Assembly: GCA_965218585.1 (NCBI GenBank)
Contig: CBDCLE010000001.1
Coordinates: forward strand, 96,001-160,000
DNA: 64,000 nt
Direction of reading: 5' to 3'
Origin: Terriglobia bacterium
GTDB taxonomy: Bacteria; Acidobacteriota; Terriglobia; 20CM-2-55-15
Part shown: positions 11,026 to 58,135 of the stretch, in pieces
How positions within the stretch are numbered: the first letter of the stretch is position 1
Layout: the number at the start of each line of letters is the position of its first letter
Position numbers and translations under genes: made by a program
Notes under the pieces: model-generated
Told to the model about the DNA's origin: nothing
The model's database searches: none
Seen by the model: only the letters and a program-made list of their open reading frames with translations

Positions 11026-13347
11026 ATGAAAACATCATGCGCATCGTAGTCCTTGTTGTGGCATCAAGTAGCATTGTTCTAGCCCGCATATTTCACCGAT
11101 AGGACCAGAAAAGGCCGCCCTGTCTGGCATAAAGCGTTTTGAAATAAACGTTTAACAAGCCAAACGGAGACGGCCCTTATGAGAACAGAGTGTAACCAAA
11201 CGACGTTCGAATTTCACGGACTTCTTCAACGAAAAGTGAAGGCGCGTTTTGACGGCGGAAAGATCATCTCCGACGCTGGGGTTCTGCTGTTGAGGGAAGT
11301 GGAAAAGCGAACGGGTCTGATCGCCGGACTGGCCGAGTGTTTCAGGGATTACCGGGACGCGAGGTTGATCGAACACACGGTGAGCGAGTTATTGGGGCAG
11401 CGCGTCTACGGACTCTGTCTGGGCTACGAGGATCTGAACGATCATGACCAACTGCGGACCGATCCGATGCTGGCCGTGGCGGTGGATAAGGCCGATCCAC
11501 TGGGGGAGAAGCGGCGGCAGGCCCGAGACCGGGGAAAAGCGTTGGCGGGCAAGTGTACGCTGAACCGGTTGGAACTGACCGGGGAGCAAGTCGATGGGAA
11601 GGAGCGGTACAAGAAGATTGCCATGGACCCGGACAAGATCGACCGCTGGATGGTGGATGCATTTGTGGCGGCTCACGGATCGGCGCCCGAGGAGATTGTT
11701 CTGGACCTGGATGCGACCGATGATCCGATCCATGGCCATCAGGAAGGACGGTTCTTTCACGGCTACTATGGCAACTACTGTTATCTGCCGCTCTACATCT
11801 TTTCGGGAGAGCATCTGCTATGCGCCCGGTTGCGGTGCTCCAATGTCGACGGTGCGGACGGCGCCGTCGAGGAATTGAACCGCATCATCGGCCAGATCCG
11901 GCAGAGCTGGCCGGAGGTGTCGATTATCATCCGGGCCGACTCGGGCTTTTGCCGGGATGAATTGCTGAGTTGGTGCGAGGCCCACCAGGTCGATTACGTG
12001 GTGGGTCTGGCCAAGAACGATCGGCTCAAGCGCGAGATCGCTGAATCGATGAGTCAGGCCGAAGCCGAGTTTAACGACACCGGGAAACCGGCGCGGGTGT
12101 TTAACGATTTCCGGTATCGCACTCGGAAGAGCTGGACCTGCACCCGACGCGTCATCGGCAAGGCCGAGTTCCTGGAGAAAGGCGCCAATCCTCGATTCGT
12201 TGTGACCTCACTGTCGCCGGAACGCCTGGACGCCCGCGCCCTCTATGAAGACTTTTACTGTGCGCGGGGCGACATGGAAAATCGCATCAAGGAACAGCAG
12301 TTGGATCTATTCGCCGACCGGACCAGCGCGGCAACCATGCGCGCCAATCAACTCCGGCTCTATCTGTCCTCGGCCGCCTACATGCTCCTGCACGCGTTAC
12401 GCCGTCTGGGACTGAAGAATACCGATCTGGCCCGCGCTCAGTGCCAGACGATCCGCTTGAAGCTCCTCAAGATCGGAGCTCAAGTCCGTCTGACGGTTCG
12501 CAACATCTGGATCTCCATGTCGGAAGCCTATCCCTACGCCGAGGTCTTTGCCCTCGTCCATCGAAACCTGCAGGCGCTTCCTCTGCGCTGCTGAGAACCG
12601 ACCCGATCCCCTGCGCCAAAATCGACTCGCTCTTTTCGGCTCCGCCGAGGTTTGTCTCAGTGCGTTTCGTCACCCTCTTCTGAACCCGAAAACGCAGCAA
12701 CTCCCGCTTGTCGACACCGCCGAGTCACGCCACACATGCCCAATTCGAACCCAGATCCTCCCGAATCCGATTCTTACTGCCCAAATCCCCCTGATCGCCG
12801 GACTGGTGAAACATGCGGGCTAGGCGTTCACCCCACGATGGCCCAGGACTGGGGGCAAGACCGATCCATCGATCAGCTATCAGAAAGCGTATATCGCTGG
12901 GGTTCTCGCGGCGAGAATAGTGCGTTCATCGTGACGTCCGAGGGGATTATCGTCATCGACGGTAGTCCGTGCGCGTCGGGGGACACCGAATGGATCAAGG
13001 GCGAGCTCGACCAGCGATACGATGTTCCTGTCAAACTCGTCGTACTAAGCCATGACCATGCGAGTCACATCTGTGGGACGGAAATATTCAGTGACACAGC
13101 CATGACGATAAGCCACCGCCAAACTTCGGCCGCATATTCTCAGAGAGAGTCGCGCTTCAGCCGTGCCGAATATCACGTTTGAAGATTCCATGGACATTCA
13201 TCTGGGTGGGCTCAAGGTGGTCTTGATCTATAACGGCCCGACTCATAGCGATAACCTGATCCAGGTTCATATTCCGGAGGAGGGAGTCCTTATTGCGGTG
13301 GACCTGTCGCGTGCTGGAAGGAGTCTGGTATTTCCGGATTTTCGTGA
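11026..13347 (+). pseudogene. Secreted MBL-fold metallo-hydrolase, split by IS1380 and truncated by IS256
   Basis: Signal peptide MRIVVLVVASSSIVL (11037-11082) rejoins GVHPTMAQ (12824 onward) in frame once the IS is removed; SHDHASH and THSDN motifs; frameshift ~13120; ends at the IS256 boundary. Confidence 0.8.
11083..12819 (+). mobile_element. IS1380-family element, apparently intact (transposase 11179-12594)
   Basis: FDGGKIISDAG, LDLDATDD, RADSGF, YCARGDMENRIKE; 15-bp IRs CCCGCAT(A/G)TTTCACC; CTAG duplicated at 11079-11082 and 12820-12823. Confidence 0.95.
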
Positions 13348-14713
13348 GAGGTCATTACAAAAGGTGTGTAAAAGTCATCAGGCGGCGGCCTTCGATTTCA
13401 TCACGACTCTGATGCCGTCAGCGAATTGCTGGCCATCATAGACCTCTTGTAAGAGTTCGGATCCTTTTAAGTGTCGCCAAGCCTTCTCAGCGACACGTAG
13501 TAGCTTCCAGATCATTGCCGTTGCATTCTCGACACGCTTGAATCGGCGAGCGGCGTTGGTGCGGAGGCGAACCATGTCGAAGGGCGATTCGACGATGTTG
13601 GTCGTTCTAAGATGCACCCAGTGTTGTTTCGGGAACTCATAGAAAGTAATCATCCGGTCCCAGTCCCGCAAACAGCGTCTCACCCGCTTTGGGATAGTTC
13701 TTCTCATATCGGCGGACGAACTGATCCCGCTTTCGTTCGCAGGCCGCGCGGGAGTTCGCGAAGGCCATCCCATGAAGCAGCTGTCTGGCCGCGGGCTGCT
13801 CGGTCTTCGGCAGATGATCGACCACGTTGATCGACTTGTGGTTCCAGCAGCGTTGTTCCTGGCCCTGGGGCTGTTGCTCGGCCAGCGCGGACCAGATGCC
13901 CAGGTGACCGTCCGCGACAGTCAGTCGTCCCAGCTTCAGGCCCCGTCTCTGGAGATTGCGCAGAATGCGGCTCCAGGACTCCTTGCTTTCCCGCTGCCCG
14001 CTCTCACAGGCCAACAGCACTTTGCGCCCGTCTGACAAGGCTCCGATGATCACCAGCAATGCCGCTCGCTCTTTCGCGATCCCCGCTTTCACGTACAAGC
14101 CGTCTGCCCACTGGTACACGACCTCGAGGCCGGACAGGTCCTGCTGGACCCACTCGTCATACTCCAACTGCCAGGTCGATTTCAGTCGTTGGATCGATGC
14201 TCGCGACAACGGAGCGCCAGCGCCAAGCAGTCCGCGCATGGCCTGCTCGAAGTCCCCTGTGGCCAGACCGTGGAGGTAGAGATCGGGAAGTAGCTCGCCC
14301 AGCTGTTTCGATTTCCGTCGAAAATACGGCAGGATCTGACTCTCGAACCGCTCGGCGGTGTTTCGAACCCGAGGTCGTCGAACCTCCATCGTACCGTTCA
14401 TCATTGCGAAGCGTCGCGGCTTCCCGTGACCGTTCCGGTATCCTCGTCGATTCGGACTCCGCTCCGACTTTTCCCGACCCAGAAATTGAGTGACTTCGTC
14501 CTCGAGCAGCTCCTGTAGCCAGACTTGGACCCGGGATCGCGCCCAGTCCTCCAAACCTTCATACGCGTTCGTTGACGCCACTGATGCCGGTATGTTCTTC
14601 TTCTTCATGGGTGGTGTACCTTTCTCCCGGTTGCTGCCGGGATTGCTTAGGGTTTCGGATTCACCGAAAGCGTACACCGCCTTCTCTTTTTACACACCGA
14701 TTGGAACGACCTC
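13348..14713 (-). mobile_element. IS256-family element, copy 2 (+1 frameshift ~13670; no matching target duplication)
   Basis: Near-identical to copy 1 with the same IRs; flanks TTTCGTGA / TCCTTCTC do not match. Confidence 0.95.
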
Positions 14714-15289: not shown

Positions 15290-15434
15290 AAAACCCGCTG
15301 ATACCTCCGTCTACGCTTCGAGCGCAACTTCACGATGCCGCCCGCAAGACTCAACGAGGCCAGAATGGATTCGCTACATTCTTTTCTGTACGGCTCTTTC
15401 ATCCCCTACAACGTGCTGGTTTATCCTGGCGCTT
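15290..15434 (-). ncRNA. Degenerate 5' fragment (domain I) of a group II intron
   Basis: Minus strand reads (AA)GCGCCAGGATAAAACCAGCACGTTGTAGGGGATGAAAGAGCCGTAC...GTAGCGAATCCATTCTG..., resembling from memory bacterial group II intron 5' ends (GTGCGCCGGGATAAACCGGCATGTTGTAGGGGATGAAAGAG); no RT ORF. Confidence 0.6.
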
Positions 15435-15467
15435 TCCCTGATAGATCATCTTCCCGGACGTTGAGAA
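15434..15467 (+). repeat. ATCATC-core dyad site, copy A
   Basis: TTCCCTGATAG-ATCATC-TTCCCGGACGT-TGAGAA; matches four copies at 43.9-46.4 kb. Confidence 0.85.
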
Positions 15468-15506
15468 ATCCACCAGGGGGTTAAGTGGCCCCCTCAGGAG
15501 GTCGAG

Positions 15507-15668
15507 GTGAAAGCGAAAAAAGAGACGACCCCCGATGTTCGCGTCTGGTGTCAACACTGTCGCGTTCGAATCTCACCCAATGAAGACCAGGTTGCTGCCG
15601 GTGACAAGGTCTACCATAGGCAGTGCTTTCCCAAGCGGCCCTCCGTCAAGAGAGCTAAGAAGAAGTAG
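15507..15668 (+). CDS. 53-aa basic zinc-finger protein (half-LIM-like CxxC-x18-HxxCF), below the ORF-track cutoff
   Basis: RBS AGGAGG, GTG start: VKAKKETTPDVRVWCQHCRVRISPNEDQVAAGDKVYHRQCFPKRPSVKRAKKK*. Confidence 0.65.
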   Translation: MKAKKETTPDVRVWCQHCRVRISPNEDQVAAGDKVYHRQCFPKRPSVKRAKKK

Positions 15669-16092: not shown

Positions 16093-18640
16093 CCTCGGCG
16101 GTCACCCAAAACCGGCCAATGGTGGTCACCTGAAAACCGGCCAACGATAGAGGCCCGGGACATTGACAGCAGGCGGAGTAATCTCCGTCGGCATGAGCAA
16201 TGTCTTGAGCACAGAAAAGAGAGAACAAGTTGTTGCATTGGGGCGGCTTGGATGGCCGCTGCGTCGGATTGAACAGACCACTGGCGTTCGCCGTGAGACG
16301 GCCAGTGGGTATCTGAGAGCGGCCGGAATCCCCGTACGGCCGCCCGGTAGCTGGGGCCGGCGACCGGCAAAACCGGCCAACGAGGTGACCACCGACCCGG
16401 ACGGCGTAAGTGGTGTCGTTGAAAGGGTTGGCGATTCCGATATTTCAAAACCGGCCAACGAAGTGACCACCGACTCGGAGGCCGAGAATCCGGTCCCGGC
16501 AGAGTCGTCGAGCCCACCGTCGAGCAGTTCCTGCGAGCCGTACCGGGAGACGATCGAACAGGCGCTGGAGCGTGGCCGCAACGCGATGGCGATCTGGCAG
16601 GACCTGGTTACGGATCATGGCTTTGCCAGCAGCTACGAAGCGGTCAAGCGGTTCGTTCGCAAACTCCGGGGCGTGCGGTCTCCCGTAGCGGTCGGCATCA
16701 TCCAAACCGACCCTGGAGAAGAAGCCCAGGTCGACTACGGAACCGGACCCATGGTTCGGGATCCGAAGACCGGCAAGTACCGGCGGACCCGGCTGTTCGT
16801 GATGACGCTGGGCTACAGCCGCAAATCCGTGCGGTTGCTGAGCTTCAAATCCAGTTCCCTTATCTGGGCCCAGCTGCACGAGACCGCGTTCCGGCGCCTG
16901 GGTGGCAGTCCCCGTCTCATGATCCTGGACAACCTGCGCGAGGGTGTGATCGACCCGGAGTATTACGACCCCACGCTGAATCCGCTGTTCCGGGATGTGC
17001 TGGCTCACTACGGCGTGGTGGCCCTGCCATGCCGGGTGCGCGACCCAGACCGCAAAGGGAAAGTGGAGTCCGGGGTGGGACACGCCCAGAAGACCCCACT
17101 GAAGGGACAGCGCTTCGAGAGCCTCGAGGAGGCTCAGGCGTATCTGGACCGGTGGGCCGACACCCGCATCCACGGCACGACCAAGCGGCAGGTGGGGGCC
17201 ATGTTCGCTGAAGAGAAGCCGTCGCTAAAGCGGCTGCCGATCGAACCCTTCCGCTACTACAAGTACGGGCAGCGTGTCGTCCATCTCGACGGTTGTGTGG
17301 AAGTCGAAGCGGCCTATTACGGTTTACCGCCCGGTTGGATCGGACGAACGGTCAAAGTGCAGTGGGACACTCTCCACGTCCGGATCCTCGACCCGAACAC
17401 CTATCAACTCCTGCGGGAGCATGTCCGTCAAAAACGCGGTGGATATCGTGTCCGCCCCGAAGACAATCCCAAAAAGACGCCCCTAACTACCGTGCAACTG
17501 CTCGCCCGCGCCCGCCGCGCCGGAACCCATATCGGCACGCTATGTGAGGGGATTCATCGCCGACAGGGGAAGGCTGCGGTCCGCCGCATCCTGGGTGTAC
17601 TCTCCCTGGCCAAGAGGTACGGTGTGTCCGCCGTCGAGGATGCTTCGGCTGTGGCACTGGAACTCCACGTCTACGAGTATCGTTTCCTCCGCCGCTATCT
17701 GGAGCGGCGACCTCCACTCGCACTCCGTCAGGTCGATCCTCTCATTCGTGAACTGACCCAGTATCGCGATCTCATCAACCTCAAGATCCAGGAGCAGGAA
17801 CAATCATGAATCTCATTGAACTCCAGCGGGCTCTCCGACAACTCCGTCTCGGCGGCATCGCCGAGGTCCTGGAAACACGACTCCACCAGGCCCAGACCGA
17901 ACCCATGGCGCCGATCGATCTGGTCTCCCGCCTAGTCTCCGACGAACTGGACCGTCGCAGCATCCGACTGCTGGAACGCCGGCGGAAGCAAGCCCGGTTC
18001 CGCGATCCCCACAAGACGCTGGACAGCTTCGACTTCACTTTCAACAAGAAGATGAATCGCAGTCTGGTCTTCGATCTGGCCACGGCCGCATTCATCTCCA
18101 GACACGAAGACGCCTTGTTTCTCGGTCCACCCGGCACCGGCAAGAGTCATCTGGCTCAGGCCATCGGTCTGGCCGCCATCGAGCAAGGCTATCGGGTCGT
18201 CTACCGTGAAACCCATGCCCTTCTCGACGACATCGCCGAAGCCACCATCGACGGGACCCGTAAGGAGTTTATGGAGGCTCTGGCCACGGTCCCGTTGCTG
18301 ATCATCGACGACCTGGGGATACGGAAGCTCCCCCCGACTGCAGCAGAGGAACTTCTCGAGATCGTTATGCGACGGTATGAACGAACCAGCACGTTACTGA
18401 CATCGAATCGGCCCGTCGAAGACTGGGGCAAACTACTCGGCGACAGCGCGGCTGTGACTGCGATGCTGGATCGGTTGCTCCATCACGGCCACATCCTCAA
18501 GTGCGGGCCTCGGAGTTGGCGCACCAAAACGGGCTTGCCGACTCCCCCACGAAAGGGGTAGAACTACACCGTCCCGGGCCATGCCCGTTGGCCGGTTTTG
18601 AAGTGACCATCGTTGGCCGGTTTTGAAGTGACCACTGAGG
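16093..18640 (+). mobile_element. IS21-family element with istA (16193-17809) and istB (17806-18561)
   Basis: IstA EAQVDYG, DNLREGV, KGKVESGV; IstB Walker A GPPGTGKS and Walker B LLIIDDLG; reiterated terminal repeats GGTCAC...AAAACCGGCCAA at both ends in inverted orientation. Confidence 0.95.
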
Positions 18641-36032: not shown

Positions 36033-36579
36033 CATGGAAAATCGCATCAAGGAACAGCAGTTGGATCTATTCGCCGACCGGACCAGCGCGGCAACCATGC
36101 GCGCCAATCAACTCCGGCTCTATCTGTCCTCGGCCGCCTACATGCTCCTGCACGCGTTACGCCGTCTGGGACTGAAGAATACCGATCTGGCCCGCGCTCA
36201 GTGCCAGACGATCCGCTTGAAGCTCCTCAAGATCGGAGCTCAAGTCCGTCTGACGGTTCGCAACATCTGGATCTCCATGTCGGAAGCCTATCCCTACGCC
36301 GAGGTCTTTGCCCTCGTCCATCGAAACCTGCAGGCGCTTCCTCTGCGCTGCTGAGAACCGACCCGATCCCCTGCGCCAAAATCGACTCGCTCTTTTCGGC
36401 TCCGCCGAGGTTTGTCTCAGTGCGTTTCGTCACCCTCTTCTGAACCCGAAAACGCAGCAACTCCCGCTTGTCGACACCGCCGAGTCACGCCACACATGCC
36501 CAATTCGAACCCAGATCCTCCCGAATCCGATTCTTACTGCCCAAATCCCCCTGATCGCCGGACTGGTGAAACATGCGGG
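36033..36579 (+). mobile_element. Right-hand 547 bp of the IS1380 element
   Basis: Appears identical by eye to 12273-12819, including the right IR and the following CTAG. Confidence 0.95.
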
Positions 36580-37078: not shown

Positions 37079-39544
37079 ATGAGAAGCAAGACTCTGTTCG
37101 TTTTGTTTACGTGCCTTGCCGTAGTACTGGTTGCGACTTCGAGCCGGCAGGATTTGACAGCATCGCCGCAGCAAGCCTCGGCGCAAACTGTTGCTGAGTA
37201 CGTACAGTTAATGGACTCCTACTGCGCTGCCTGCCACAGTGGCGGCCTCGCCGGTCAGACAAGCCTGGTCCCGGTGCCGCAGTTCATGGATGAGGTCGAG
37301 ACCGACCTTACCAACATTGGCGCCGAAGCCGAAATCTGGGAGACAGTGCTCAGAAAGCTGGGTGGCCGTATGATGCCCCCGCCGGGAATGCCCGCGCCCG
37401 CCGACGCTGACCTCGAAGCCTTCACGGCTTTCCTGGCCGACGAACTGAACAGTGCGGCGGCTGCCAATCCGAATCCTGGAACGAAGGCGCTGCATCGTAT
37501 CAACAGAGCCGAGTACGGCAACGCAGTCCGCGACCTGCTGGGTTTGCAGATCGACGCGGTGGAGTATTTGCCAGCTGACGTGGACGCTTTCGGTTTCGAC
37601 AACATCGCAGAAGTCATGGGTACGAATCCGGCGTTGATGGACCGTTACCTCAATGCGGCCTGGAAGATTACTGAGGTTGCCATCGGCGACGTCTCGATGA
37701 GTCCGACGTTTTTGACCGTCGTGAATTCCTCCGACCTGTCGCAGGACAATCACATCGAAGGTCTGCCGATCGGGACGCGCGGCGGAACTTACATCGAGTA
37801 CAACTTCCCCGTGGACGGCGAATACCTCGTCAAAACGGTGTTGTTCGAAAACACCGTTGACGTACCGCGCGGCCTGTCGCAAGAGCACGATCTGGAAGTC
37901 TCGTTTGACGGCGAGCGCGTGCACCTGGCCCGGTTCGGGGGTTTCGAAGACGAGGAACCCGCTTACCTGCGGCCGGCTTTGACTGCTGCAGAAATCTATA
38001 AACGTTTCGAAACGACTATTCAGGTCGAAGCGGGGCCCCACCGGGTAGGTGTGGCTTTCCTCAAGAAGAGCACGGCTTCCACACTGAACCTGCTTGAGCC
38101 GTTTTATCGGGAACATATCGATCCGATTTCGCCAATGGGAATCCCGTCCGTTGAAGCAGTGACGATCGAAGGTCCATTCAACGTCTCTGGCCCTGGCAAC
38201 TCCCCGAGCCGTCAGACAATCTTTACCTGTTATCCCAGTGCCGACGTAGCCGAGGCGACCTGTGCCGAGGAAATCCTCAAGGGGATAGCACGCAAGGCAT
38301 ACCGCCGGCCGTTGACGGATCAGGAAGTCGATACTGTCATGGGTTTCTATCGGACCGAGATCGATAACGGCGAGAACTTCGATACGGCGATTCAGACCGG
38401 CATTACTTACATCCTGGTTAGCCCCCAGTTCCTGTTCCGTTTCGAGCGGGATCCTGAAGGCGTCGAACCGGGCTCTGTTTATCCGATCAGCGACCTGGAG
38501 ATGGCCTCCCGGCTGTCGTTCTTTCTCTGGAGCAGTATTCCTGACGACGAGTTGATCGATCTGGCTACGGAGGGACGACTCCAGGAGCCGGAAGTTCTTG
38601 AGGGACAGGTTCGACGAATGCTGGCGGATGACCGTTCGGCTTCTCTTGGCGCCAACTTCGCAGGGCAATGGCTATACCTGAGAAACATTCCAAGCACGTC
38701 TCCGAACGCGGACATTTTCACCGATTTCGACGATAACCTTCGCCAGGGGCTTCTGCGTGAGACGGAAATGCTTTTTGAGAGCATCGTCCAGGAGGACCAG
38801 CCGATAGTTAACCTGCTCACCTCAGACTACACGTTTGTGAACGAGCGGTTAGCCAAGCACTACGAAATCGAGGGTATCTACGGTGACCAGATGCGTCGTG
38901 TTCCCGTTACAGAAGAGTACCGGAAGGGGTTGTTAGGTCAGGGCAGTGTCCATCTGATCAACTCCCTTGCCAACCGGACGAATGTGGTGACACGCGGCAA
39001 GTACATTATGACCAACATCCTGGGAACGCCGCCACCGCCACCACCGCCGAACGTACCACCGCTGGACGAAGAGCCGGACGTGCCGCAATCGATGCGTGAA
39101 CGTATGGAACAGCACCGGTCCAATCCAGCCTGTTTCGGTTGCCACTCCTACATGGATCCGATCGGCTTTGCTCTCGAAAACTATGACGCGATCGGCCGTT
39201 GGAGAACGGAAGAGAACGGTGTGGAGATCGATGCATCGGGAACAATCCCGGTCCTTCGTGAATTTGGAAACATTGCCGGTCCGGTGGCCCTTCGGGAAGC
39301 CATCGTGAGCCGTTCAGAACAGTTCGTCCGTACGGGCGTCGAAATGCTGATGACGTACGGACTCGGTAGAGGGCTAGAGGCGAGCGATATGCCGATAGTC
39401 CGTTCCATTATGAGAGATGCGGCTGCGGACGATCACCGCATCTCGTCTTTGGTTATCGGCATCGTAAACAGCGCGCCATTCCAGATGCGGGTAGCCCAGT
39501 CTGAAAGTAACGAAGCAATTGCTGAGAACGCTGACCTTAACTAA
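37079..39544 (+). CDS. DUF1592/DUF1588/DUF1587/DUF1595/DUF1585 c-type cytochrome domain protein
   Basis: Signal peptide; CAACH and CFGCH heme motifs; HRINRAEYGNAVRDLLG, EMASRLSFFLWSSIPD, DPIGFALENYD. Confidence 0.92.
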   Translation: MRSKTLFVLFTCLAVVLVATSSRQDLTASPQQASAQTVAEYVQLMDSYCAACHSGGLAGQTSLVPVPQFMDEVETDLTNIGAEAEIWETVLRKLGGRMMPPPGMPAPADADLEAFTAFLADELNSAAAANPNPGTKALHRINRAEYGNAVRDLLGLQIDAVEYLPADVDAFGFDNIAEVMGTNPALMDRYLNAAWKITEVAIGDVSMSPTFLTVVNSSDLSQDNHIEGLPIGTRGGTYIEYNFPVDGEYLVKTVLFENTVDVPRGLSQEHDLEVSFDGERVHLARFGGFEDEEPAYLRPALTAAEIYKRFETTIQVEAGPHRVGVAFLKKSTASTLNLLEPFYREHIDPISPMGIPSVEAVTIEGPFNVSGPGNSPSRQTIFTCYPSADVAEATCAEEILKGIARKAYRRPLTDQEVDTVMGFYRTEIDNGENFDTAIQTGITYILVSPQFLFRFERDPEGVEPGSVYPISDLEMASRLSFFLWSSIPDDELIDLATEGRLQEPEVLEGQVRRMLADDRSASLGANFAGQWLYLRNIPSTSPNADIFTDFDDNLRQGLLRETEMLFESIVQEDQPIVNLLTSDYTFVNERLAKHYEIEGIYGDQMRRVPVTEEYRKGLLGQGSVHLINSLANRTNVVTRGKYIMTNILGTPPPPPPPNVPPLDEEPDVPQSMRERMEQHRSNPACFGCHSYMDPIGFALENYDAIGRWRTEENGVEIDASGTIPVLREFGNIAGPVALREAIVSRSEQFVRTGVEMLMTYGLGRGLEASDMPIVRSIMRDAAADDHRISSLVIGIVNSAPFQMRVAQSESNEAIAENADLN

Positions 39545-43685: not shown

Positions 43686-43923
43686 CTAGCGTGCAGCAGA
43701 ACTCAATTCGTCTTTGAAGACCACACCGCCTTTCATCACGAACCCGGCCTTATTTGCCGGGTGGTGTAGGCCTCGGCCGTCCTTACGATGTCGATCCAGG
43801 GGCCGGCGCTTCCTTGCGATCAAGCCGATCACAGGAACTGCCGAGGTCAATACTCCAGCGTTACAGATCAACATCGTCCTGAACTGGTTTGAGGAACTGA
43901 AGGAACGAGTCCCTGTGCCCTGA
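43686..43923. pseudogene. Back-to-back gene fragments: amidohydrolase C-terminus (-) and Ser/Thr kinase-PD40 C-terminus (+)
   Basis: FVMKGGVVFKDEL on the minus strand; GRRFLAIK...INIVLNWFEELKERVP on the plus strand. Confidence 0.55.
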
Positions 43924-43932
43924 TTTTCGAGG

Positions 43933-43969
43933 TCAGGTCCTGAGAAATCATCTTCTCGGACGTTGAGAA
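43933..43969 (+). repeat. ATCATC-core dyad site, copy B
   Basis: TCA-GGTCCTGAGAA-ATCATC-TTCTCGGACGT-TGAGAA. Confidence 0.9.
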
Positions 43970-43989
43970 TTTCAGCGAACATTGGAGGA

Positions 43990-44388
43990 ATGATGAACAA
44001 GGACCACACTGCGTACCGATTCGCTGTCGGCGTCGCGCTTGCGACAGCATTCATTCTCGTCTGGGTGGCTGGTGCCGTTGGCATCATAGGGGCTGATGGT
44101 GACCCCGCCGACTTGATGTATGTCGGAGTGCTCGCCGTCGGAATCATCGGTGCCCTCATCGCGCGCTTCCAGCCACATGGAATGGCCCGCGCGTTGGTTG
44201 CAACGGCCCTCGCTCAGGCGTTAGTCGCCGTGATCGCGCTGGCCGCCGGGATGGTCCCCGCCTATAATTCTGCGTACGAAATCTTGGGCCTCAATGGGTT
44301 CTTCGTCGCGCTGTGGATCGGATCGGCCAGGCTGTTTCGGTCTGCTGCCGAGGAGCAACCTCGGGCGGGCCGAGCGCCGCAGGGTTGA
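43990..44388 (+). CDS. Four-TM membrane protein of unknown function
   Basis: RBS GGAGG; four hydrophobic segments; GAVGIIG..GDPA.LMY. Confidence 0.75.
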   Translation: MMNKDHTAYRFAVGVALATAFILVWVAGAVGIIGADGDPADLMYVGVLAVGIIGALIARFQPHGMARALVATALAQALVAVIALAAGMVPAYNSAYEILGLNGFFVALWIGSARLFRSAAEEQPRAGRAPQG

Positions 44389-44440
44389 CTCGACCGCCGT
44401 CGACGGGTGCCTGTGCCCTAGACGACGGTGAAAATGATTG

Positions 44441-44477
44441 TCAACGCCTGTTAAATCATCTTGTCGGACACTGAGAA
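44441..44477 (+). repeat. ATCATC-core dyad site, copy C
   Basis: TCA-ACGCCTGTTAA-ATCATC-TTGTCGGACAC-TGAGAA. Confidence 0.9.
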
Positions 44478-44488
44478 ATGGAGATGAA

Positions 44489-44929
44489 ATGCTGAAGAAG
44501 AACTCGAAAGACAAAGTCGCGTTCTGGAATTGGCTAGGCCGGTTGTTTGATCGTCGCCGCAGCTTGGGCATCCGGGTCCCGAAGGTCCGATTTCTGGCCA
44601 TCTCCGTTGCACTTATGGCAACGGGACTGATCTGCAGCGAGGTTCAGCTATTTGCCGTGGGCCAGGAGACGCCTGTCATTCGCAGGATCGGCTATCAAGG
44701 GCAGAATTTCGTTACCGTCACCGACATCCTGGACCGCTTGCGTGAACGGAACGTCGGGCTCAGTGTCGAGCAGGCCTATGACCCGGCGCGAGTCGAGCGC
44801 GCCCGGGATGTGATTGTTGACCTTTTGGACGAGAGAGGCCGTCAGAACGCGTCAGTAGAGGTCGAGGTGTATGACATCCCGCCGCGAGCGGTCGGAGTCA
44901 CGTTCCACATTGATGAAGGAGCGCCTTAA
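44489..44929 (+). CDS. Membrane-anchored single POTRA-domain protein
   Basis: IRRIGYQG..VTVTDILDRL..YDPARVERA..LLDERGRQNA.V..VTFHIDEG. Confidence 0.7.
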   Translation: MLKKNSKDKVAFWNWLGRLFDRRRSLGIRVPKVRFLAISVALMATGLICSEVQLFAVGQETPVIRRIGYQGQNFVTVTDILDRLRERNVGLSVEQAYDPARVERARDVIVDLLDERGRQNASVEVEVYDIPPRAVGVTFHIDEGAP

Positions 44930-44968
44930 CGCCGACCGCTGCAACTTCAAGAGAACTGAACGAAACGC

Positions 44969-45005
44969 TCAAGTTCTGAGAAATCATCTTCCCGGACTAT
45001 GAGAA
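44969..45005 (+). repeat. ATCATC-core dyad site, copy D
   Basis: TCA-AGTTCTGAGAA-ATCATC-TTCCCGGACTA-TGAGAA. Confidence 0.9.
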
Positions 45006-45418
45006 GTCGTACTCCGGTAAAAAGCCCTTCTTGAAGTCTCCCCGAATCACGCCACACGGCTTTCCCTTTGCGGACGTCTCCCCACAGCGGTTGACGGTCG
45101 ACCGGAGACTTCTGGCGAAAAAAAGGGCGCGCGGGCGGAGAGGTGCCGGTAAAATGCTTCCAGAATCGGGCGCTTCGGTGGATCGGCCCTTGATGCAGAG
45201 TGGCCGGTCGGCGTGTGGGAAGCCGGAAGAACGTGCGACGCAAAAATCTCGACTCTTGGGAGAGCCTCAGTGTACAAACGTTGGATCCGGGCATCAAAAA
45301 TGAAAATCTTAGATGAGATCGGGTGCGCGATCTCTTTGCGGGGAATCCGCCTACGAAGGCGGCATAGAATCAAAACCTTCATTTAACTGAAACTGCAAGG
45401 ATGGAACAGGAGTCCGTA

Positions 45419-46093
45419 ATGAAAATGTTCAAAGTAACAACAATGCTCGTAGCAGCGATCGTGATGGCAGGTTCGAGTGCAATGGCTCAGGAAATGAACT
45501 TCTTTGTCACTAGCGCTGGTTCGGGCTATGGAGGCAACCTGGGTGGTTTGGCTGGTGCCGATGCCCGCTGCCAGGCGTTGGCTTCAGTTGCCGGTGCCGG
45601 CGATAAAACCTGGCGTGCTTATCTGAGCACTCAGGGTCCTAACGCCGTCAATGCACGGGATCGCATCGGCTCCGGACCCTGGTACAACGCCAGTGGAGAC
45701 ATGATCGCGGAAAATCTTGATCAACTGCATCAGGAAGAAGGAAACAATATTAGTTTCGCGACCGCACTGGATGAACATGGCAACCCAGTCCCCTATGTAT
45801 CGATTGGTCCAGACGGCAATCCCTTGCCCCTAGCCTTGCAGATGGACGTGGAACACGATGTCTTGACCGGCTCTCAGCCGGACGGCACGGCATTTCCTGC
45901 CGGCGAAGATCGGACCTGCAATAATTGGATGTCGTCCGACGAAGGCGGCGCGATGCTCGGCCATCATGATCGCCGGGGTTTACAGCCGGGCCTGTCTCCC
46001 TGGAGCAATGCCCATCCTTCGCAGGGCTGTAGCCAACAGGGACTGATCAATACCGGTGGCGCCGGACGCTATTACTGCTTTGCTATCGATTGA
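45419..46093 (+). CDS. Secreted endostatin-like (C-type lectin fold) protein
   Basis: FFVTS..GGNLGGLAGADARCQ, WRAYLS, RIGSGPWYN, TCNNW, GRYYCFA. Confidence 0.8.
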   Translation: MKMFKVTTMLVAAIVMAGSSAMAQEMNFFVTSAGSGYGGNLGGLAGADARCQALASVAGAGDKTWRAYLSTQGPNAVNARDRIGSGPWYNASGDMIAENLDQLHQEEGNNISFATALDEHGNPVPYVSIGPDGNPLPLALQMDVEHDVLTGSQPDGTAFPAGEDRTCNNWMSSDEGGAMLGHHDRRGLQPGLSPWSNAHPSQGCSQQGLINTGGAGRYYCFAID

Positions 46094-46322
46094 CGTCCAT
46101 AGACTGTTGGTGCCAACAGCAAAATCCCCTTAAGGCGGCATGACAAACGGCTGAACCCGTCAGTCCTCCATGTCCTGCGGCGGCCTGTCGATTAGCCATC
46201 TATAGATCGGCATCGACCACGTAGGGCTGATGGCTTTTGCAAGGAGCCGGACCTTGCGTTTTCTTTTTTTTGATTCTGAGTCCTGGAGTTGTGAAGGCCA
46301 AACTAACCAAAGAATTGATGGC

Positions 46323-46359
46323 TCAAGTCCTGTTAAATCATCTTCGCGGACGTTGAGAA
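46323..46359 (+). repeat. ATCATC-core dyad site, copy E
   Basis: TCA-AGTCCTGTTAA-ATCATC-TTCGCGGACGT-TGAGAA. Confidence 0.9.
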
Positions 46360-46429
46360 TTGGCCTAAATACAAGCGTTGACCTTCTGATTGCTTACAAA
46401 CCCCTCTTAGTATTCTTTACCGAGTTTTT

Positions 46430-47794
46430 GAGGTCATTACAAAAGGTGTGTAAAAGTCATCAGGCGGCGGCCTTCGATTTCATCACGACTCTGATGCCGT
46501 CAGCGAATTGCTGACCATCATAGACCTCTTGTAAGAGTTCGGATCCTTTTAAGTGTCGCCAAGCCTTCTCAGCGACACGTAGTAGCTTCCAGATCATTGC
46601 CGTTGCATTCTCGACACGCTTGAATCGGCGAGCGGCGTTGGTGCGGAGACGAACCATGTCGAAGGGCGATTCGACGATGTTGGTCGTTCTCAGATGCACC
46701 CAGTGTTGTTTCGGGAACTCATAGAAAGTAATCATCCGGTCCCAGTCCCGCAACAGCGTCTCACCCGCTTTGGGATAGTTCTTCTCATATCGGCGGACGA
46801 ACTGATCCCGCTTTCGTTCGCAGGCCGCGCGGGAGTTCGCGAAGGCCATCCCATGAAGCAGCTGTCTGGCCGCGGGCTGCTCGGTCTTCGGCAGATGATC
46901 GACCACGTTGATCGACTTGTGGTTCCAGCAGCGTTGTTCCTGGCCCTGGGGCTGTTGCTCGGCCAGCGCGGACCAGATGCCCAGGTGACCGTCCGCGACA
47001 GTCAGCCGTCCCAGCTTCAGGCCCCGTCTCTGGAGATTGCGCAGAATGCGGCTCCAGGACTCCTTGCTTTCCCGCTGCCCGCTCTCACAGGCCAACAGCA
47101 CTTTGCGCCTGTCTGACAAGGCTCCGATGATCACCAGCAATGCCGCTCGCTCTTTCGCGATCCCCGCTTTCACGTACAAGCCGTCTGCCCACTGGTACAC
47201 GACCTCGAGGCCGGACAGGTCCTGCTGGACCCACTCGTCATACTCCAACTGCCAGGTCGATTTCAGTCGTTGGATCGATGCTCGCGACAACGGAGCGCCA
47301 GCGCCAAGCAGTCCGCGCATGGCCTGCTCGAAGTCCCCTGTGGCCAGACCGTGGAGGTAGAGATCGGGAAGTAGCTCGCCCAGCTGTTTCGATTTCCGTC
47401 GAAAATACGGCAGGATCTGACTCTCGAACCGCTCGGCGGTGTTTCGAACCCGAGGTCGTCGAACCTCCATCGTACCGTTCATCATTGCGAAGCGTCGCGG
47501 TTTCCCGTGACCGTTCCGGTATCCTCGTCGATTCGGACTCCGCTCCGACTTTTCCCGACCCAGAAATTGAGTGACTTCGTCCTCGAGCAGCTCCTGTAGC
47601 CAGACTTGGACCCGGGATCGTGCCCAGTCCTCCAAACCTTCATACGCGTTCGTTGACGCCACTGATGCCGGTATGTTCTTCTTCTTCATGGGTGGTGTAC
47701 CTTTCTCCCGATTGCTGCCGGGATTGCTTAGGGTTTCGGATTCACCGAAAGCGTACACCGCCTTCTCTTTTTACACACCGATTGGAACGACCTC
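46430..47794 (-). mobile_element. IS256-family element, copy 3 (intact transposase ORF 46460-47758; no matching target duplication)
   Basis: Near-identical to copies 1 and 2; flanks GAGTTTTT / TCCGTTGA. Confidence 0.95.
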
Positions 47795-48504: not shown

Positions 48505-48731
48505 GTTTCAGCAAATAATCACCCTTAGCCAACGCGTTACCAGATCGCTCATCGAGGACGTGGATTTCTGCCTTACCCCATCTCTCTTTCTTCCCTGAAT
48601 TCGCACATTGATCAAAGACGAGTGGTTGTTACAGGACACTCGTCGTAGCGCGTAAGGTACAATGCCGGAAAGTTCGGCGCCGCCCAGTCGAAATATTTCG
48701 GGTGCTTGCCATTAGACACAAGGAGGTTTTC

Positions 48732-50636
48732 ATGACTTTACGGTGGACCAGCATCTTGACTGTGGGACTCCTGGTAGCCGCCCTCCTCATACCGGCCGCT
48801 GAGGCTCAGAATCCGGCCGATTGGCCCATGTACAACAGAGACCTGAACGCGACGCGCTTTTCTCCTCTTAGTGAAATCAATACCGACAACGTAACTGATC
48901 TTGAGGTCGCCTGGACTTATTCGTTGGGAGAGAACAACGCGGGTGGCCTGAGTAACGGCTTCGAGTTCACTCCGATCGTTACGAATGGAATGCTGTATGC
49001 GGCCGCCGAGGGCCGGGTCGTCGCGATGGATCCGGCGACAGGCGAGGAACTCTGGCGCCACAGCGTTACCGGAGATGACCAGCCATCCCGCCGGGCTGTT
49101 GCTTTCTGGGTTGGGGACGAGCAGGAAGATGCGCGGATCTTTTTCACAGCCCGTCGCCGACTGATCGGACTGAGTGCTTTCACGGGCGAACCGGTGGCTC
49201 GCTTTGGAGACGGGGGCGAGGTCGATATGGGTCAGCCGTATGACTCAGCACCCACGGTCTACAGGAATCTACTCATCGTAGGAACGAACGGATTGCCTGG
49301 AAGCGTGCGTGCGTTTGATGCGATGACTGGAGAGAAGGCTTGGGAGTTCTTTTCCATACCGAAACCGGGCGAGCCCGGTAGCGAGAGCTGGGAGGGCGAG
49401 ATTTTCGAGAACGCCGAATCCGTGGCCTGGGCGTTTTCAATGAGTGTCGACACCGAACGGGGCCTGGTCTACGTGATGTTCGACAATCCCGGATACGACT
49501 ACTGGGGTGGAAACCGTCCGGGAAGTAATCTGTTTGGAAACTCCGTGGTGGCGTTGGACGCTGCGACCGGTGAGTACCGGTGGCATTTCCAGACCGTCCA
49601 TCACGATCTCTGGGATTTCGATCAGCCTGCACCCGCCGTCCTGCTGGACCTGAACGTCGACGGAGAAGACGTGCCGGGGCTGGCGATCGTCGGCAAGAGC
49701 GCCTACATGTTCATCCTCAACCGGGAGACGGGCGAACCGGTATTTGGTGTGGAGGAGACTCCCGTTCCTCGAAGTAACGTTCCTACTGAGCGTGCTTCGC
49801 CGACGCAGCCCATTCCCGTAAAGCCGCCGCCGCTGGCCCGTGTCAGCTTCAGCCCGGAGGACCTCGTGACGGCCGAGGACACGAACGCCGAGCATGCCGA
49901 CTTCTGCGCCAATCTCTTTGAGCGGAGCGGCGGTCTGGAGAATCAAGGTCCGTTCACACCTTACACCTATCGCGCTCCCGGCGCGGCGCCCTGCTCGACG
50001 ATTGTTTTTCCCGGCTCGATCGGAGGCGTGAACTGGGGCGGGACAGCTGCGGATCCGACGATCAACTACGTTTTCGCAAACACGATGAGCGAAGCCAGCA
50101 TCGGATGGGTCGAGAACAGTCCGGAAGGCGCGCGGACGCCTTTTCGCAGGGGCAGTATTGTTGGCAGGACTTCCCGATTCCAGTGGAACAATTCGCCGGA
50201 AGATTCGGGAGGGAATATTTCGGGTTCCGGTGAACAGGGCAGTTGGTTGTGTCAGAAGCCGCCCTGGGGTGAACTGGTCGCTGTCGACGCCAACACGGGC
50301 GACATCGCATGGAGAGTTCCCCTTGGGATCAACGAAGGCTTGCCGCCCGAGAAGCAGAGGACAGGCACGCTGAACATGGGCGGTCCCATGGCCACAGGGG
50401 GCGGGCTCGTCTTTATCGGCGCCTCTAATGACCGCAGGTTCCGCGCTTTCGACTCCCGGACCGGAGACCAGCTGTGGGTCACGCGTCTGGACATGAGTGC
50501 CCATGCAGTGCCGATCAGTTATGAGGCCGCCGGCAAGCAGTACGTGGTCATCGTTGCGGGCGGGCAGAGAGGCGACATGGATGACCCGGGACCGGACGGT
50601 TCAGAAGCGTTGGTCGTTTTTGCATTGCCCGAATAG
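48732..50636 (+). CDS. Soluble periplasmic PQQ-dependent dehydrogenase (glucose/quinate DH-like), paralog 1
   Basis: DWPMYN..RFSPL.EIN, WHFQTVHHDLWDFD, PPWGEL, GGLVFIGASND.RFRAFD; no N-terminal TM domain. Confidence 0.9.
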   Translation: MTLRWTSILTVGLLVAALLIPAAEAQNPADWPMYNRDLNATRFSPLSEINTDNVTDLEVAWTYSLGENNAGGLSNGFEFTPIVTNGMLYAAAEGRVVAMDPATGEELWRHSVTGDDQPSRRAVAFWVGDEQEDARIFFTARRRLIGLSAFTGEPVARFGDGGEVDMGQPYDSAPTVYRNLLIVGTNGLPGSVRAFDAMTGEKAWEFFSIPKPGEPGSESWEGEIFENAESVAWAFSMSVDTERGLVYVMFDNPGYDYWGGNRPGSNLFGNSVVALDAATGEYRWHFQTVHHDLWDFDQPAPAVLLDLNVDGEDVPGLAIVGKSAYMFILNRETGEPVFGVEETPVPRSNVPTERASPTQPIPVKPPPLARVSFSPEDLVTAEDTNAEHADFCANLFERSGGLENQGPFTPYTYRAPGAAPCSTIVFPGSIGGVNWGGTAADPTINYVFANTMSEASIGWVENSPEGARTPFRRGSIVGRTSRFQWNNSPEDSGGNISGSGEQGSWLCQKPPWGELVAVDANTGDIAWRVPLGINEGLPPEKQRTGTLNMGGPMATGGGLVFIGASNDRRFRAFDSRTGDQLWVTRLDMSAHAVPISYEAAGKQYVVIVAGGQRGDMDDPGPDGSEALVVFALPE

Positions 50637-56141: not shown

Positions 56142-56230
56142 TTGACAGTGCTGCCGGTGTAAATCGAAGAGTTTCGTTATTCTTTCACGAAAAGAGCAAC
56201 TGCACGACCTGATATTAAGGAGATTAAGTC

Positions 56231-58135
56231 ATGAGTTTACGATGGACCCCTATCCTGATCCTCGCTGTCACGTTGACAGCCTTGAACCCCGGATCAGGTC
56301 AGGCGCAAAATTTCGATTGGCCGATGTACAACTTCGACCTTTCCGGTACTCGGCATTCCCCTCTAAGGGAAATCAATACGGGCAACGTCGGAGACCTGGA
56401 GCAAGTCTGGTCTTTTAACATCGGCCGGGCCGCCAGCACGGGCGGACTGACGGGAGGTTCAGAGGTGACTCCCATCGTCGTGGATGGCGTGATGTTCCTG
56501 CCAATGGCAGATTCTGTCGTTGCGCTGGATGCGGAAACCGGGGACGAGGTATGGACGTACCAGATGTCGATCGATGAGCCGCCCTCGCGTCGCGGAGTGG
56601 CTTACTGGGGCGGCGATGGCGATGCTGCTGCCCGGATCTACGTGACTTCGGGGAGCCGACTGATCGGGCTGAGTGCATTCACGGGCGAACCCACCGCAAA
56701 TTTTGGTGACGGTGGCATCGTGGATATGGTCCAGGCCTACAACGGCGTTCCCGCCGTTTTCGAAAACCGCATGCTCGTGGGCACCAACGGTGTTCCGGGA
56801 GCGGTCCGCACCTTTGATGCCGTCACCGGAGATCTGGTCTGGGAATTCCGTTCTGTTCCGCAGCCGGGTGAGTTCGGAAACGATACCTGGGAAAACGAGA
56901 GTTGGCGGGATCGGACGGGCACCTATGCTTGGGCTTTTGCTCCGACCATGGACCTTGAGAGAGGTATATACTACGCGCCGTTCGAGACGGCGGGACCTAT
57001 CGATTACTGGGGCGGGGACCGCCATGGCGACAACCTGTTCGCAGGTTCGATCGTGGCGCTGGACATTCGAACCGGAGAACGCTTGTGGCATTTCCAGCAT
57101 GTGCACCACGATCTCTGGGATTACGACCTGCCGTCGTCTCCCACGCTCCTCGATGTGATCGTCGATGGAGAAGTCGTCCCGATTCTCGCGCAGACCGCCA
57201 AGACCGGCTACATGTACATCCTGAATCGAGTGACGGGTGAACCTGTATTCGGCATCGAGGAAGTTCCGATGCCCCCGACATCGGTTCCCGAAGACCTGGC
57301 TTCTCTGACGCAGCCGATTCCGGTGAAACCGCCACCATTGGCGCGGGTCAGCTACAGTCCCGAAGATCTCGTGACGGCCGAGGACACCAACGCCGAGCAT
57401 GCTGCTTTCTGTGCGGAGTTGGTGGAACGCAGCGGAGGGTTCTATAACGTAGGGCCGTTCACGCCATACGTGTTTCGCGAAGACGGCGCACCCCCTTATT
57501 CCACCGTCATTTTCCCCGGTTCGGTCGGTGGAGCCAACTGGGGAGGTAATACTGCAGATCCTGGACTGGGTTACGTCATCGTTAACACGATGAGTGAAGC
57601 CAGCTTTGGGTGGATTGAAAGGAGTCCCGAAGGCGCTCGCGTGCCCTATCGGCGGAACAGCATCGTCGGCCGGACTTCACGGTTCCAGTGGTTCGACAAT
57701 ACGCCCGACTCGGGCGGCAACATCGTCGGGGCAGGGGAGATGGGCTGGCCGTGCCAGAAGCCACCCTGGGGTGAACTCGTTGCTGTCGATGCCAACACAG
57801 GCGACATCGCGTGGAGAGTTCCGCTGGGTATCACCGAGGAGCTCGAAGGCGATAAGCAGAAGACGGGCCGATTGAATTTCGGTGGTCCGATGTCTACCGC
57901 GGGCGGCCTCGTGTTCATCGGGGCCAGTAACGACCGGCGCTTCCGGGCGTTCGACACCCGCACAGGAGAAGAACTCTGGACCCAGTCTCTTGTGATGAGT
58001 GCCCACGCTGTTCCGATCTCCTACGCCGTTAACGGCAAACAGTACGTGGCCGTTGTCGCCGGCGGGCAACGAGGCGACGTGGATGACCCCGGCCCGGAAG
58101 GGGCCGAGGCGGTCGTCGTTTTCGCACTGCCCTAA
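56231..58135 (+). CDS. Soluble periplasmic PQQ-dependent dehydrogenase, paralog 2
   Basis: Colinear with 48732-50636; WHFQHVHHDLWDYD. Confidence 0.9.
   Translation: MSLRWTPILILAVTLTALNPGSGQAQNFDWPMYNFDLSGTRHSPLREINTGNVGDLEQVWSFNIGRAASTGGLTGGSEVTPIVVDGVMFLPMADSVVALDAETGDEVWTYQMSIDEPPSRRGVAYWGGDGDAAARIYVTSGSRLIGLSAFTGEPTANFGDGGIVDMVQAYNGVPAVFENRMLVGTNGVPGAVRTFDAVTGDLVWEFRSVPQPGEFGNDTWENESWRDRTGTYAWAFAPTMDLERGIYYAPFETAGPIDYWGGDRHGDNLFAGSIVALDIRTGERLWHFQHVHHDLWDYDLPSSPTLLDVIVDGEVVPILAQTAKTGYMYILNRVTGEPVFGIEEVPMPPTSVPEDLASLTQPIPVKPPPLARVSYSPEDLVTAEDTNAEHAAFCAELVERSGGFYNVGPFTPYVFREDGAPPYSTVIFPGSVGGANWGGNTADPGLGYVIVNTMSEASFGWIERSPEGARVPYRRNSIVGRTSRFQWFDNTPDSGGNIVGAGEMGWPCQKPPWGELVAVDANTGDIAWRVPLGITEELEGDKQKTGRLNFGGPMSTAGGLVFIGASNDRRFRAFDTRTGEELWTQSLVMSAHAVPISYAVNGKQYVAVVAGGQRGDVDDPGPEGAEAVVVFALP

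Follow-up and report, generated by a model that had tools for sequence, protein, structure and literature searches.

Repeats of about 40 bp as candidate recombination sites bounding small gene cassettes in a marine acidobacterial genus

The window analysed in this work is a stretch of 64,000 nucleotides (G000:C1:96001-160000) of the source genome G000, a 4.55-Mb assembly in 26 contigs, and the element in question is a repeat of about 40 bp which occurs in it five times (repeat family D7, copies 77-100% identical to the reference copy). C-numbers designate contigs, L-numbers (e.g. L098) extracted genome stretches, and G001-G004 four other species of the same genus (congeners) used for comparison. 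Four copies, named sites A to D, follow one another in the same orientation and a fifth lies upstream, with start-to-start spacings of 28502, 508, 528 and 1354. The original prediction had described five copies sharing the centre ATCATC, with the last three of these spacings, and had read them as the borders of cassettes shuffled by a tyrosine recombinase; all five are present (Table 1). With up to two mismatches allowed, the core pattern AAATCATCTTNNCGGAC is found five times in the window against 0.14 times in shuffles, and none of 100 shuffles reaches five.

Each interval between sites A and D holds one plus-strand gene, as had been predicted: genes for a hydrophobic protein, a POTRA-domain protein and a DUF1554 protein. 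The next gene had been said to start some 10-40 bp downstream of the site, which holds for A (about 19 bp) and B (about 10 bp) and fails at C, where about 400 bp of non-coding DNA precede the cassette 3 gene and about 230 bp follow it. Upstream of site A is a remnant open reading frame (ORF) which derives from the C-terminus of PD40-type proteins, and a short ...VPVP-stop remnant is found 3' of the cassette 1 gene (at about 44400-44422). About 105 bp (43864-43971), reaching to the end of site A, recur at 85-93% identity at many places in G001 and G003, and the final 160 bp of the cassette 2 gene recur in G003 at 94%, as a fragment upstream of another site. Site D is followed by a promoter-like module, truncated by an IS256-family element which is a later insertion and stands outside the cassette system. 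The window contains no recombinase gene, in line with the prediction, which had placed the enzyme elsewhere.

Table 1. Coordinates of sites, cassette genes and associated elements (window positions unless a genome or stretch is named)
Feature	Position	Strand	Remarks
Fifth site	15431..15469	+	centre ATCATC 15445-15450; left arm degenerate (GCTTTCCCTGATAG), right arm normal
Remnant ORF, 69 aa	43714..43923	+	ends ...INIVLNWFEELKERVPVP-stop; conserved left extension of the repeat unit
Site A	43933..43971	+	centre 43947-43952
Cassette 1 gene	43990..44388	+	132-aa hydrophobic protein, no Pfam family
Site B	44441..44479	+	centre 44455-44460
Cassette 2 gene	44489..44929	+	146-aa POTRA-domain protein (PF07244, E 1.4e-7)
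Site C	44969..45007	+	centre 44983-44988
Cassette 3 gene	45401..46093	+	230-aa DUF1554 protein, signal-peptide-like N-terminus (PF07588, E 9.7e-7)
Site D	46323..46361	+	centre 46337-46342
Shared right-flank module	46362..46429	+	68 bp, TTGGCC..GTTGACCTTCTGATTGC..TAGTATTCTTTACCGAG, promoter-like; recurs in G001 and G003
IS256-family insertion sequence	46430..47794	-	432-aa Mutator-type transposase (PF00872, E 3.5e-58)
IS256-family copies in the window	1034-2398; 13348-14712; 46430-47794
IS91-type element copies	L054:1394-3519; L063-L070; L071-L073		L054 and L063-L070 in G001 and G003, L071-L073 in G002
IS110-family insertions	G000 C10:1475-2625; L096:13224-14723; L098:3852-5351		identical position in the site, different flanks; once in G000, twice in G001

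At the fifth site a conserved gene end upstream gives way to variable DNA downstream. In an alignment of this site with two metagenome contigs (A3), both contigs match at about 96% identity over the 250 nt upstream and over the degenerate left arm, and past GGACGTT the divergence is complete. The locus syntenic to the window array, delimited by a DUF6152 gene and a PQQ dehydrogenase gene, carries other genes and no sites in G001, G002 and G003, a difference which probably reflects a local insertion.

The anatomy of the site was derived from 44 copies aligned without gaps (A1). Over a length of about 40 bp, the site is composed of two imperfectly inverted arms of about 17 bp each around an invariant AA-ATCATC-TT. 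The left-arm consensus is ATTCTCAAG-TCC-T-GAnAA, with an alternative subtype ..CAACGCC.., the centre comprises ten invariant or near-invariant bases, AAATCATCTT, and the right arm, TTnTC-GGAC-G-TTGAGAAT (nnCGGAC-G-TTGAGAAT in A1), is an imperfect inverted copy of the left one. The 6-bp centre is thus flanked as GAnAA / ATCATC / TTnTC, with symmetric outer parts beyond. The arms had been given as 11 bp; in many copies the symmetry extends to about 17 bp per arm, and the repeated unit exceeds 39 bp, often with a left extension of about 65 bp and, at site D, with the right-flank module. The left extension, present in many copies, reads as the 3' end of a gene (...LNWFEELKERVPVP-stop). In some cassettes it is the true end of a long protein, for example of a 520-aa PD40 beta-propeller protein, and elsewhere, as upstream of sites A and B, 9-25 codons remain of it behind a gene unrelated to it. 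A cassette with a 554-aa amidohydrolase (G000 C4:186620-188443; L076:2921-4741) is 94% identical between G000 and G001; the G001 copy ends in the ...LLNWFEELKEGVPFP motif and the G000 copy stops early (...LLNWFWGT). Since the amidohydrolase of G001 carries this ending, the PD40-type ending has also been joined to unrelated enzymes.

Sites of this family are numerous in G000. The exact core pattern is matched 39 times, and the genome-wide scan that the original prediction had called for, done with an nhmmer profile built from 54 copies, gives 89 matches at E<=0.01 and 81 at E<=1e-3. These are mostly clustered and co-oriented: 17 clusters contain 68 of the 81 sites, and 42 of 51 adjacent pairs point in the same direction, with a median spacing of 1.76 kb. 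The large contigs C26 (378 kb), C3 (350 kb) and C17 (269 kb) have zero or one site, weak if any (E 0.0066 in C3, 0.0046 in C17). Allowing two mismatches, the pattern is found 61 times in G000, 153 in G001, 109 in G003, 10 in G002 and 3 in G004, and 0-3 times in each of 36 other genomes of the family and class; a reversed control pattern was found nowhere. Scans of metagenomes and viruses returned 25 loci, of which 15 have the full site (nhmmer E<=1e-9), the remainder being chance matches to the right half. In G000 only 6 of 72 sites lie inside crude long ORFs, and a related promoter-like right flank is common to 26 of the 72. The genes between sites encode unrelated accessory functions, including methyltransferases, a glyoxalase, a metallo-beta-lactamase fold protein, an amidohydrolase, an esterase, ankyrin proteins and domains of unknown function.

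Comparison between genomes places the borders of the cassettes within the centre of the site. The DUF3024 cassette (G000 C4:188843-189302) is 95% identical to G003:C2:4081275-4081722 and 92% to G001:C9:1146024-1146483, and in the three-way alignment of these copies (A2) identity starts inside ..TCATCTTCTCGGACGTTGACATG and stops inside ATTCTCAGGTCCTGAGAAA.CATCTT. At its 5' end one right arm is joined in the three genomes to three different left arms with unrelated upstream flanks, and at its 3' end one left arm is joined to three different right arms with different downstream genes. The 5' end of the PCMT cassette in three genomes and the 3' end of the cyclase cassette in two genomes follow the same pattern, and a rare right-arm variant (GGAAGT) travels with the PCMT cassette in G001 and G003, the left arms being different. 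All these breakpoints map between columns 26 and 35 of A1. The DUF3024 and PCMT cassettes are neighbours in G001 and lie in separate arrays, on contigs C4 and C2, in G000. The three cassettes are 90-95% identical between species whereas the syntenic genes flanking the window array are 67-80% identical in the same genomes, and therefore the cassettes have moved between species.

The two halves of the site also behave independently within the whole collection. In a set of 120 distinct sites with complete context, 8 pairs have common far-downstream DNA (+100..+250) and 8 have common far-upstream DNA (-220..-70), and only one pair, which is a duplicated region of G001, has both. In the 14 one-sided pairs, some of which result from insertions of insertion sequences (IS), the arm beside the shared flank is the more similar one 12 times (5 of 7 downstream, 7 of 7 upstream). 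Linkage between the variable alignment columns was calculated for 60 G000 sites: there is strong linkage among columns to the left of the centre (mean z 1.71, 23% above 3), whereas pairs of columns across the centre, at the same distances, are unlinked (mean z -0.12, 1% above 3).

The same arms are found in G000 with several 6-bp centres, namely ATCATC (46 sites), ACGATC (8), ACGACA (7), ACGACC (4) and ATCCCC (4), counted with a loose pattern for which the background is 212 singletons. The PCMT cassette lies between two of the four ATCCCC sites, and as by a rough estimate about 0.09 adjacent pairs would be expected by chance, this pair around one cassette is no more than suggestive. A conserved stretch of 75 nt, the promoter-like module in reverse, flanks the ACGA.. 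sites, which are often inverted and located at the upstream end of an array. Solo copies of the module plus a site are scattered in G000 (about 19).

On balance we consider it probable that these repeats are double-strand site-specific recombination sites which bound small mobile gene cassettes and are distinct from integrons, and at the level of the site family the original interpretation is largely supported. A cassette would extend from centre to centre and would be composed of a right arm, often the promoter-like module, one gene or sometimes a few, often a 3'-end remnant, and a left arm. Excision between two direct sites would give a circle with one complete site, integration of the circle at a resident site with the same centre would rebuild two hybrid sites, and repeated integration would generate co-oriented arrays. 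The enzyme would act in trans, would most likely be a tyrosine recombinase and would exchange strands within the 6-bp centre; a different centre between the same arms would define a separate compatibility class. The system may still be at work in G000, or the G000 arrays may be fossil. The broader proposal, for which the chances appear to us about even, is that of a second, integron-independent cassette system in a marine acidobacterial genus, with lox-like sites of about 40 bp, heterospecific centres, a trans-acting recombinase reshuffling single-gene cassettes at dozens of loci, and passage of cassettes between species.

Several observations weigh against the recombination-site reading, and the largest group of them concerns the enzyme. 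No cognate recombinase, of the tyrosine type named in the original prediction or of another, was identified in G000: there are 13 hits to PF00589 and 9 to PF00239 in this genome, none beside a full site. Of 20 G000 genes or gene fragments for tyrosine and serine recombinases, none has a full site within 4 kb, the sole exception being a 77-aa recombinase fragment (C9:66292-66435) which adjoins an ACGATC-class site, and none of the serine recombinases of the five genomes is near an array. A single recombinase was seen with such sites on both sides, a 316-aa Xer-like enzyme of the tyrosine type in G001 (G001:C5:52192-53139), which scores below all NCBIfam cut-offs. Here two inverted ACGACA-class sites, each with the 75-nt promoter-like module directed outward, form inverted ends around the recombinase gene (L098:8058-9273; G001:C5:52057-53272), and the whole could be an invertible or transposon-like unit. 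An intact copy of this gene is present in G001 only; the G002 copy is broken, and none was found at E<=1e-25 in G004 or in the site-rich genomes G000 and G003.

The remaining points on this side concern sites and cassettes. The shuffling of cassettes is supported in other arrays, between G000 and two congeners and with breakpoints in the centre, but not for the three cassettes of the window, for which no near-identical copy is present in another site-bounded context in G001-G004; homologues of the cassette 1 gene (75-81% DNA identity) are found in the four congeners without flanking sites, and homologues of the glyoxalase gene at three other loci without clear ones. Two of the 14 one-sided pairs are reversed, one with an IS91-type insertion and one with a 1-nt deletion in the arm. 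As the centre is invariant, homologous, illegitimate and site-specific exchange inside it would all give the same breakpoint picture. Columns 24 and 35 of A1, beside the centre, are associated in a complementary sense (z about 6; G-C 13, C-G 6 and T-G 21 against G-G 4, C-C 3 and T-C 11), which a pure double-strand model does not predict. Finally, no circles or excision products were seen in Logan contigs of four public runs, a result which is uninformative, the contigs being short pieces in which joints can come from repeat copies elsewhere. The four runs are labelled marine, mostly with small shares, and no habitat claim is drawn from them.

Alternatively, the sites could be intergenic palindromes of the repetitive extragenic palindrome (REP) or miniature inverted-repeat transposable element (MITE) type which spread as whole units, the mosaic junctions resulting from homologous or illegitimate recombination between dispersed copies. 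Such an origin fits short imperfect extragenic palindromes present in tens to more than 100 copies, their genus-specific expansion and the existence of some inverted pairs; REPs are known targets of IS110-family elements, and an IS110-family RNA-guided transposase element targets the sites at three places. The invariant centre, as said, does not separate the mechanisms of exchange. G000 even has two Y1_Tnp genes (RAYT-like, PF01797), but neither is flanked by sites, the nearest site being 2 kb from one of them, and an association with RAYT was for this reason rejected. The sites are moreover clustered in variable regions and not dispersed, and their arms are as independent as shuffles, which copying of the whole unit does not predict. 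Partner sites of different arm subtypes have only about 10-17 identical bases in common, too short for efficient RecA-dependent exchange. Much more shared sequence is available in the 65-bp left extension than in the centre, yet it is at the centre, not within the extension, that linkage is lost. We therefore rate this origin as unlikely, though not negligible. A purely regulatory role, as operators of a dimeric regulator or as insulators or terminators between genes, would explain the position of the sites by regulation instead of mobility, and dyad symmetry is typical for dimer binding, the gene downstream of the site is co-oriented in 54 of 71 cases, and a promoter-like module follows more than a third of the sites. 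Yet in G000 the next gene starts -8 to 1043 bp from the site and the previous stop codon lies 10 to 1463 bp away, and because these distances vary so widely an operator or promoter at a fixed distance, the alternative named in the original prediction, is rejected. The genes are functionally unrelated, an intrinsic terminator was discarded as no T-run follows the dyad, the syntenic locus is without sites in three congeners, and the chimeric sites at cassette borders would be left unexplained; a regulatory role is accordingly improbable in our judgement.

The palindromic nature of the site also raises the possibility of a folded single strand, a hairpin nicked in its loop by an HUH-type enzyme or another single-strand recombinase, with single-stranded circles. 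The loop-like centre is the most conserved part, there are conserved one-base asymmetries (in the left arm GTCC is followed by a T, in the right arm GGACG has one base more) which two different left-arm sequences of A1 both show, columns 24 and 35 prefer complementary bases, and the genus is rich in Y2 transposases of the IS91 family, which insert near sites. Against this stands the lack of covariation between the arms: across 17 proposed pairs, 77.7% of the cells are paired as compared to 77.3% after shuffling, and 166 of 500 shuffles pair equally well or better. The hairpins are weak and no better than shuffles, the four window copies folded as single-stranded DNA giving -2.4 to -6.0 kcal/mol (z -0.81 to +0.69), and the minus strand -6.1 kcal/mol for site A (z -1.10) and -4.5 kcal/mol for site D (z -0.53). 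In view of the missing covariation and the weak folds, the dyad symmetry is explained by both arms being near one consensus and seems to fit a protein-bound double-strand site better than a selected fold. G000 has no IS91-type transposase and its Y1 genes are not associated with sites. Overall we regard a single-strand mechanism as very unlikely. Another reading is that of very short atypical attC sites, used by the integron integrase of the genus, the arrays being attC clusters that lack an integrase. The attC outer boxes are RYYYAAC and GTTRRRY, recombination taking place in the right-hand one, between its G and TT, and in one left-arm subtype TCTCAAC and GTTGAGA each fit six of the seven positions, the other subtype having GGTCAAG. 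The genes are cassette-like and co-oriented, and full-length intI is present in three of the four congeners (G001, G002 and G003; 440-458 bits; L059 and L061, i.e. G002:C41:5403000-5422999 and G003:C2:190000-209999, and G001:C9:714608-715549), with a second, interrupted intI in G003 and a fragment with stop codons in G004. G000, however, has no integron integrase (best TIGR02249 match 83.7 bits, cut-off 265), and not one site of this family occurs in eight 20-kb stretches (160 kb) around the intI genes and fragments of G001-G004; the 20 kb to each side of the G001-G003 intI genes are free of them. The congener integrons have small co-oriented ORFs and, on the 3' side of intI, their own ordinary attC repeats of the GCCTAAC...GTTAGGC type, unlike the sites in sequence. 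The number of sites does not track intI, since G002 has intI and 10 sites and G000 no intI and 61 sites; and because the portion of the right arm within the GTT box stays joined to the cassette on its downstream side, the crossover maps to the centre and not to an attC outer box. Integron attC was hence rejected as an identification, and even the atypical version is highly improbable.

The double-strand recombination site which we favour shares features with several known systems. As in integron arrays, single unrelated accessory genes are co-oriented, the borders are imperfect palindromes, cassettes run from site to site, sites are targeted by IS elements, and the same cassettes are found in different orders across genomes. 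Unlike integrons, there is no intI beside the arrays, the site is highly conserved over about 40 bp, the crossover maps to the centre, structural covariation is absent, many cassettes have a promoter-like module, and ordinary integrons coexist in the genus. With the pdif modules and dif-integrating elements the sites have in common two arms around a 6-bp centre and no recombinase inside the module. In the pdif (Xer) modules of Acinetobacter plasmids the sites alternate in orientation and the enzyme acts in trans; the sites described here differ in being direct repeats, chromosomal, present in about 80 copies, with arms of about 17 bp that do not resemble the host dif. A single exact match to the dif-like consensus is found in G000 (C10, about 37490-37516; CGCATAA-TGAGTA-TTATGTCAAGT), unlike both the arms and the centre of the sites, and XerCD/dif was consequently rejected on sequence; it had been predicted correctly that the sites match neither attC nor canonical dif. 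XerC/XerD-like genes are located at C10:73443-73943 and C3:185319-185840. There is also a formal similarity to lox and FRT, which have inverted arms, a short asymmetric centre and variant centres with the same arms, the difference being that the present sites are natural, multicopy and cassette-bounding. Resemblance to REP and bacterial interspersed mosaic elements (BIME) and to the Neisseria intergenic mosaic elements consists in short extragenic imperfect palindromes of high copy number, targeted by IS110 and located in variable regions; in distinction to REP/BIME there is no flanked RAYT, the sites are clustered and co-oriented, and half-sites segregate with the flanking cassettes. Tandem islands of the staphylococcal cassette chromosome (SCC) type are likewise tandem units with direct repeats, include a 3'-end remnant of the target gene and are moved in trans, but the present units occupy many loci, contain single genes and have no associated serine recombinase. 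No known RNA family accounts for the site, the only two Rfam hits in the window being far below the gathering scores and located elsewhere.

In the abstracts retrieved by full-text literature searching no description of such sites was found. To our knowledge, the storage and shuffling of single promoterless genes in the form of cassettes is well understood in integrons only. If the proposed reading is true, cassette-based gene capture evolved more than once, and with a different site logic, that is a double-strand site, several classes of centre and a crossover whose place in the centre is fixed; each genome would have dozens of arrays. There would then be a new family of natural recombination sites, with an enzyme to seek, and the system would account for some of the gene flux in a little-studied lineage of marine Acidobacteriota.

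Other mobile elements also occur in and near the arrays. None of the IS256, IS21, IS110 or IS91 elements seen ends in an ATCATC-class site; such elements insert in or near sites. A multicopy Xer/IntI-like recombinase of 293-306 aa (G001, G002, G003), at first sight a candidate for the enzyme, was rejected, being part of an IS91-family element inserted off the site. This element of about 2.5 kb is composed of the Xer/IntI-like recombinase gene and, behind it, the gene of a transposase of the IS91 family (Y2_Tnp plus Zn_Tnp_IS91). Its insertion point in G001 and G003 follows a GAAC in the conserved right flank, within about 25-60 nt of the site, and 4 of 6 copies examined in G001 are inserted near a site; G002 has more than 20 copies, and G000 no trace of element or transposase. 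The IS110-family element, encoding a transposase of 380 aa (NF033542, 316 bits), lies directly left of AAATCATC and appears to target the centre of the site. IS256-family copies are also found in other site arrays; copies of G003 and G004 are 98% and one of G002 is 95% identical, far above the identity of the core genomes.

Some further features of the window may be mentioned. A 53-aa zinc-ribbon-like ORF (15507-15668) downstream of the fifth site is part of a flank common to G000 C11:1709, and is followed by an IS21-like pair (16163-18561) which, judged from the translations, encodes a 548-aa IstA-like protein and a 251-aa IstB-like ATPase. A 300-nt repeat with 100% identity (12273-12572 and 36033-36332, 23.8 kb apart; family D4) probably belongs to another mobile element. 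Two genes for PQQ-dependent dehydrogenases (48702-50636 and about 56200-58135) are paralogues located about 7.5 kb apart and correspond to the repeat families D6, D9, D11 and D12 (71-86% identity).

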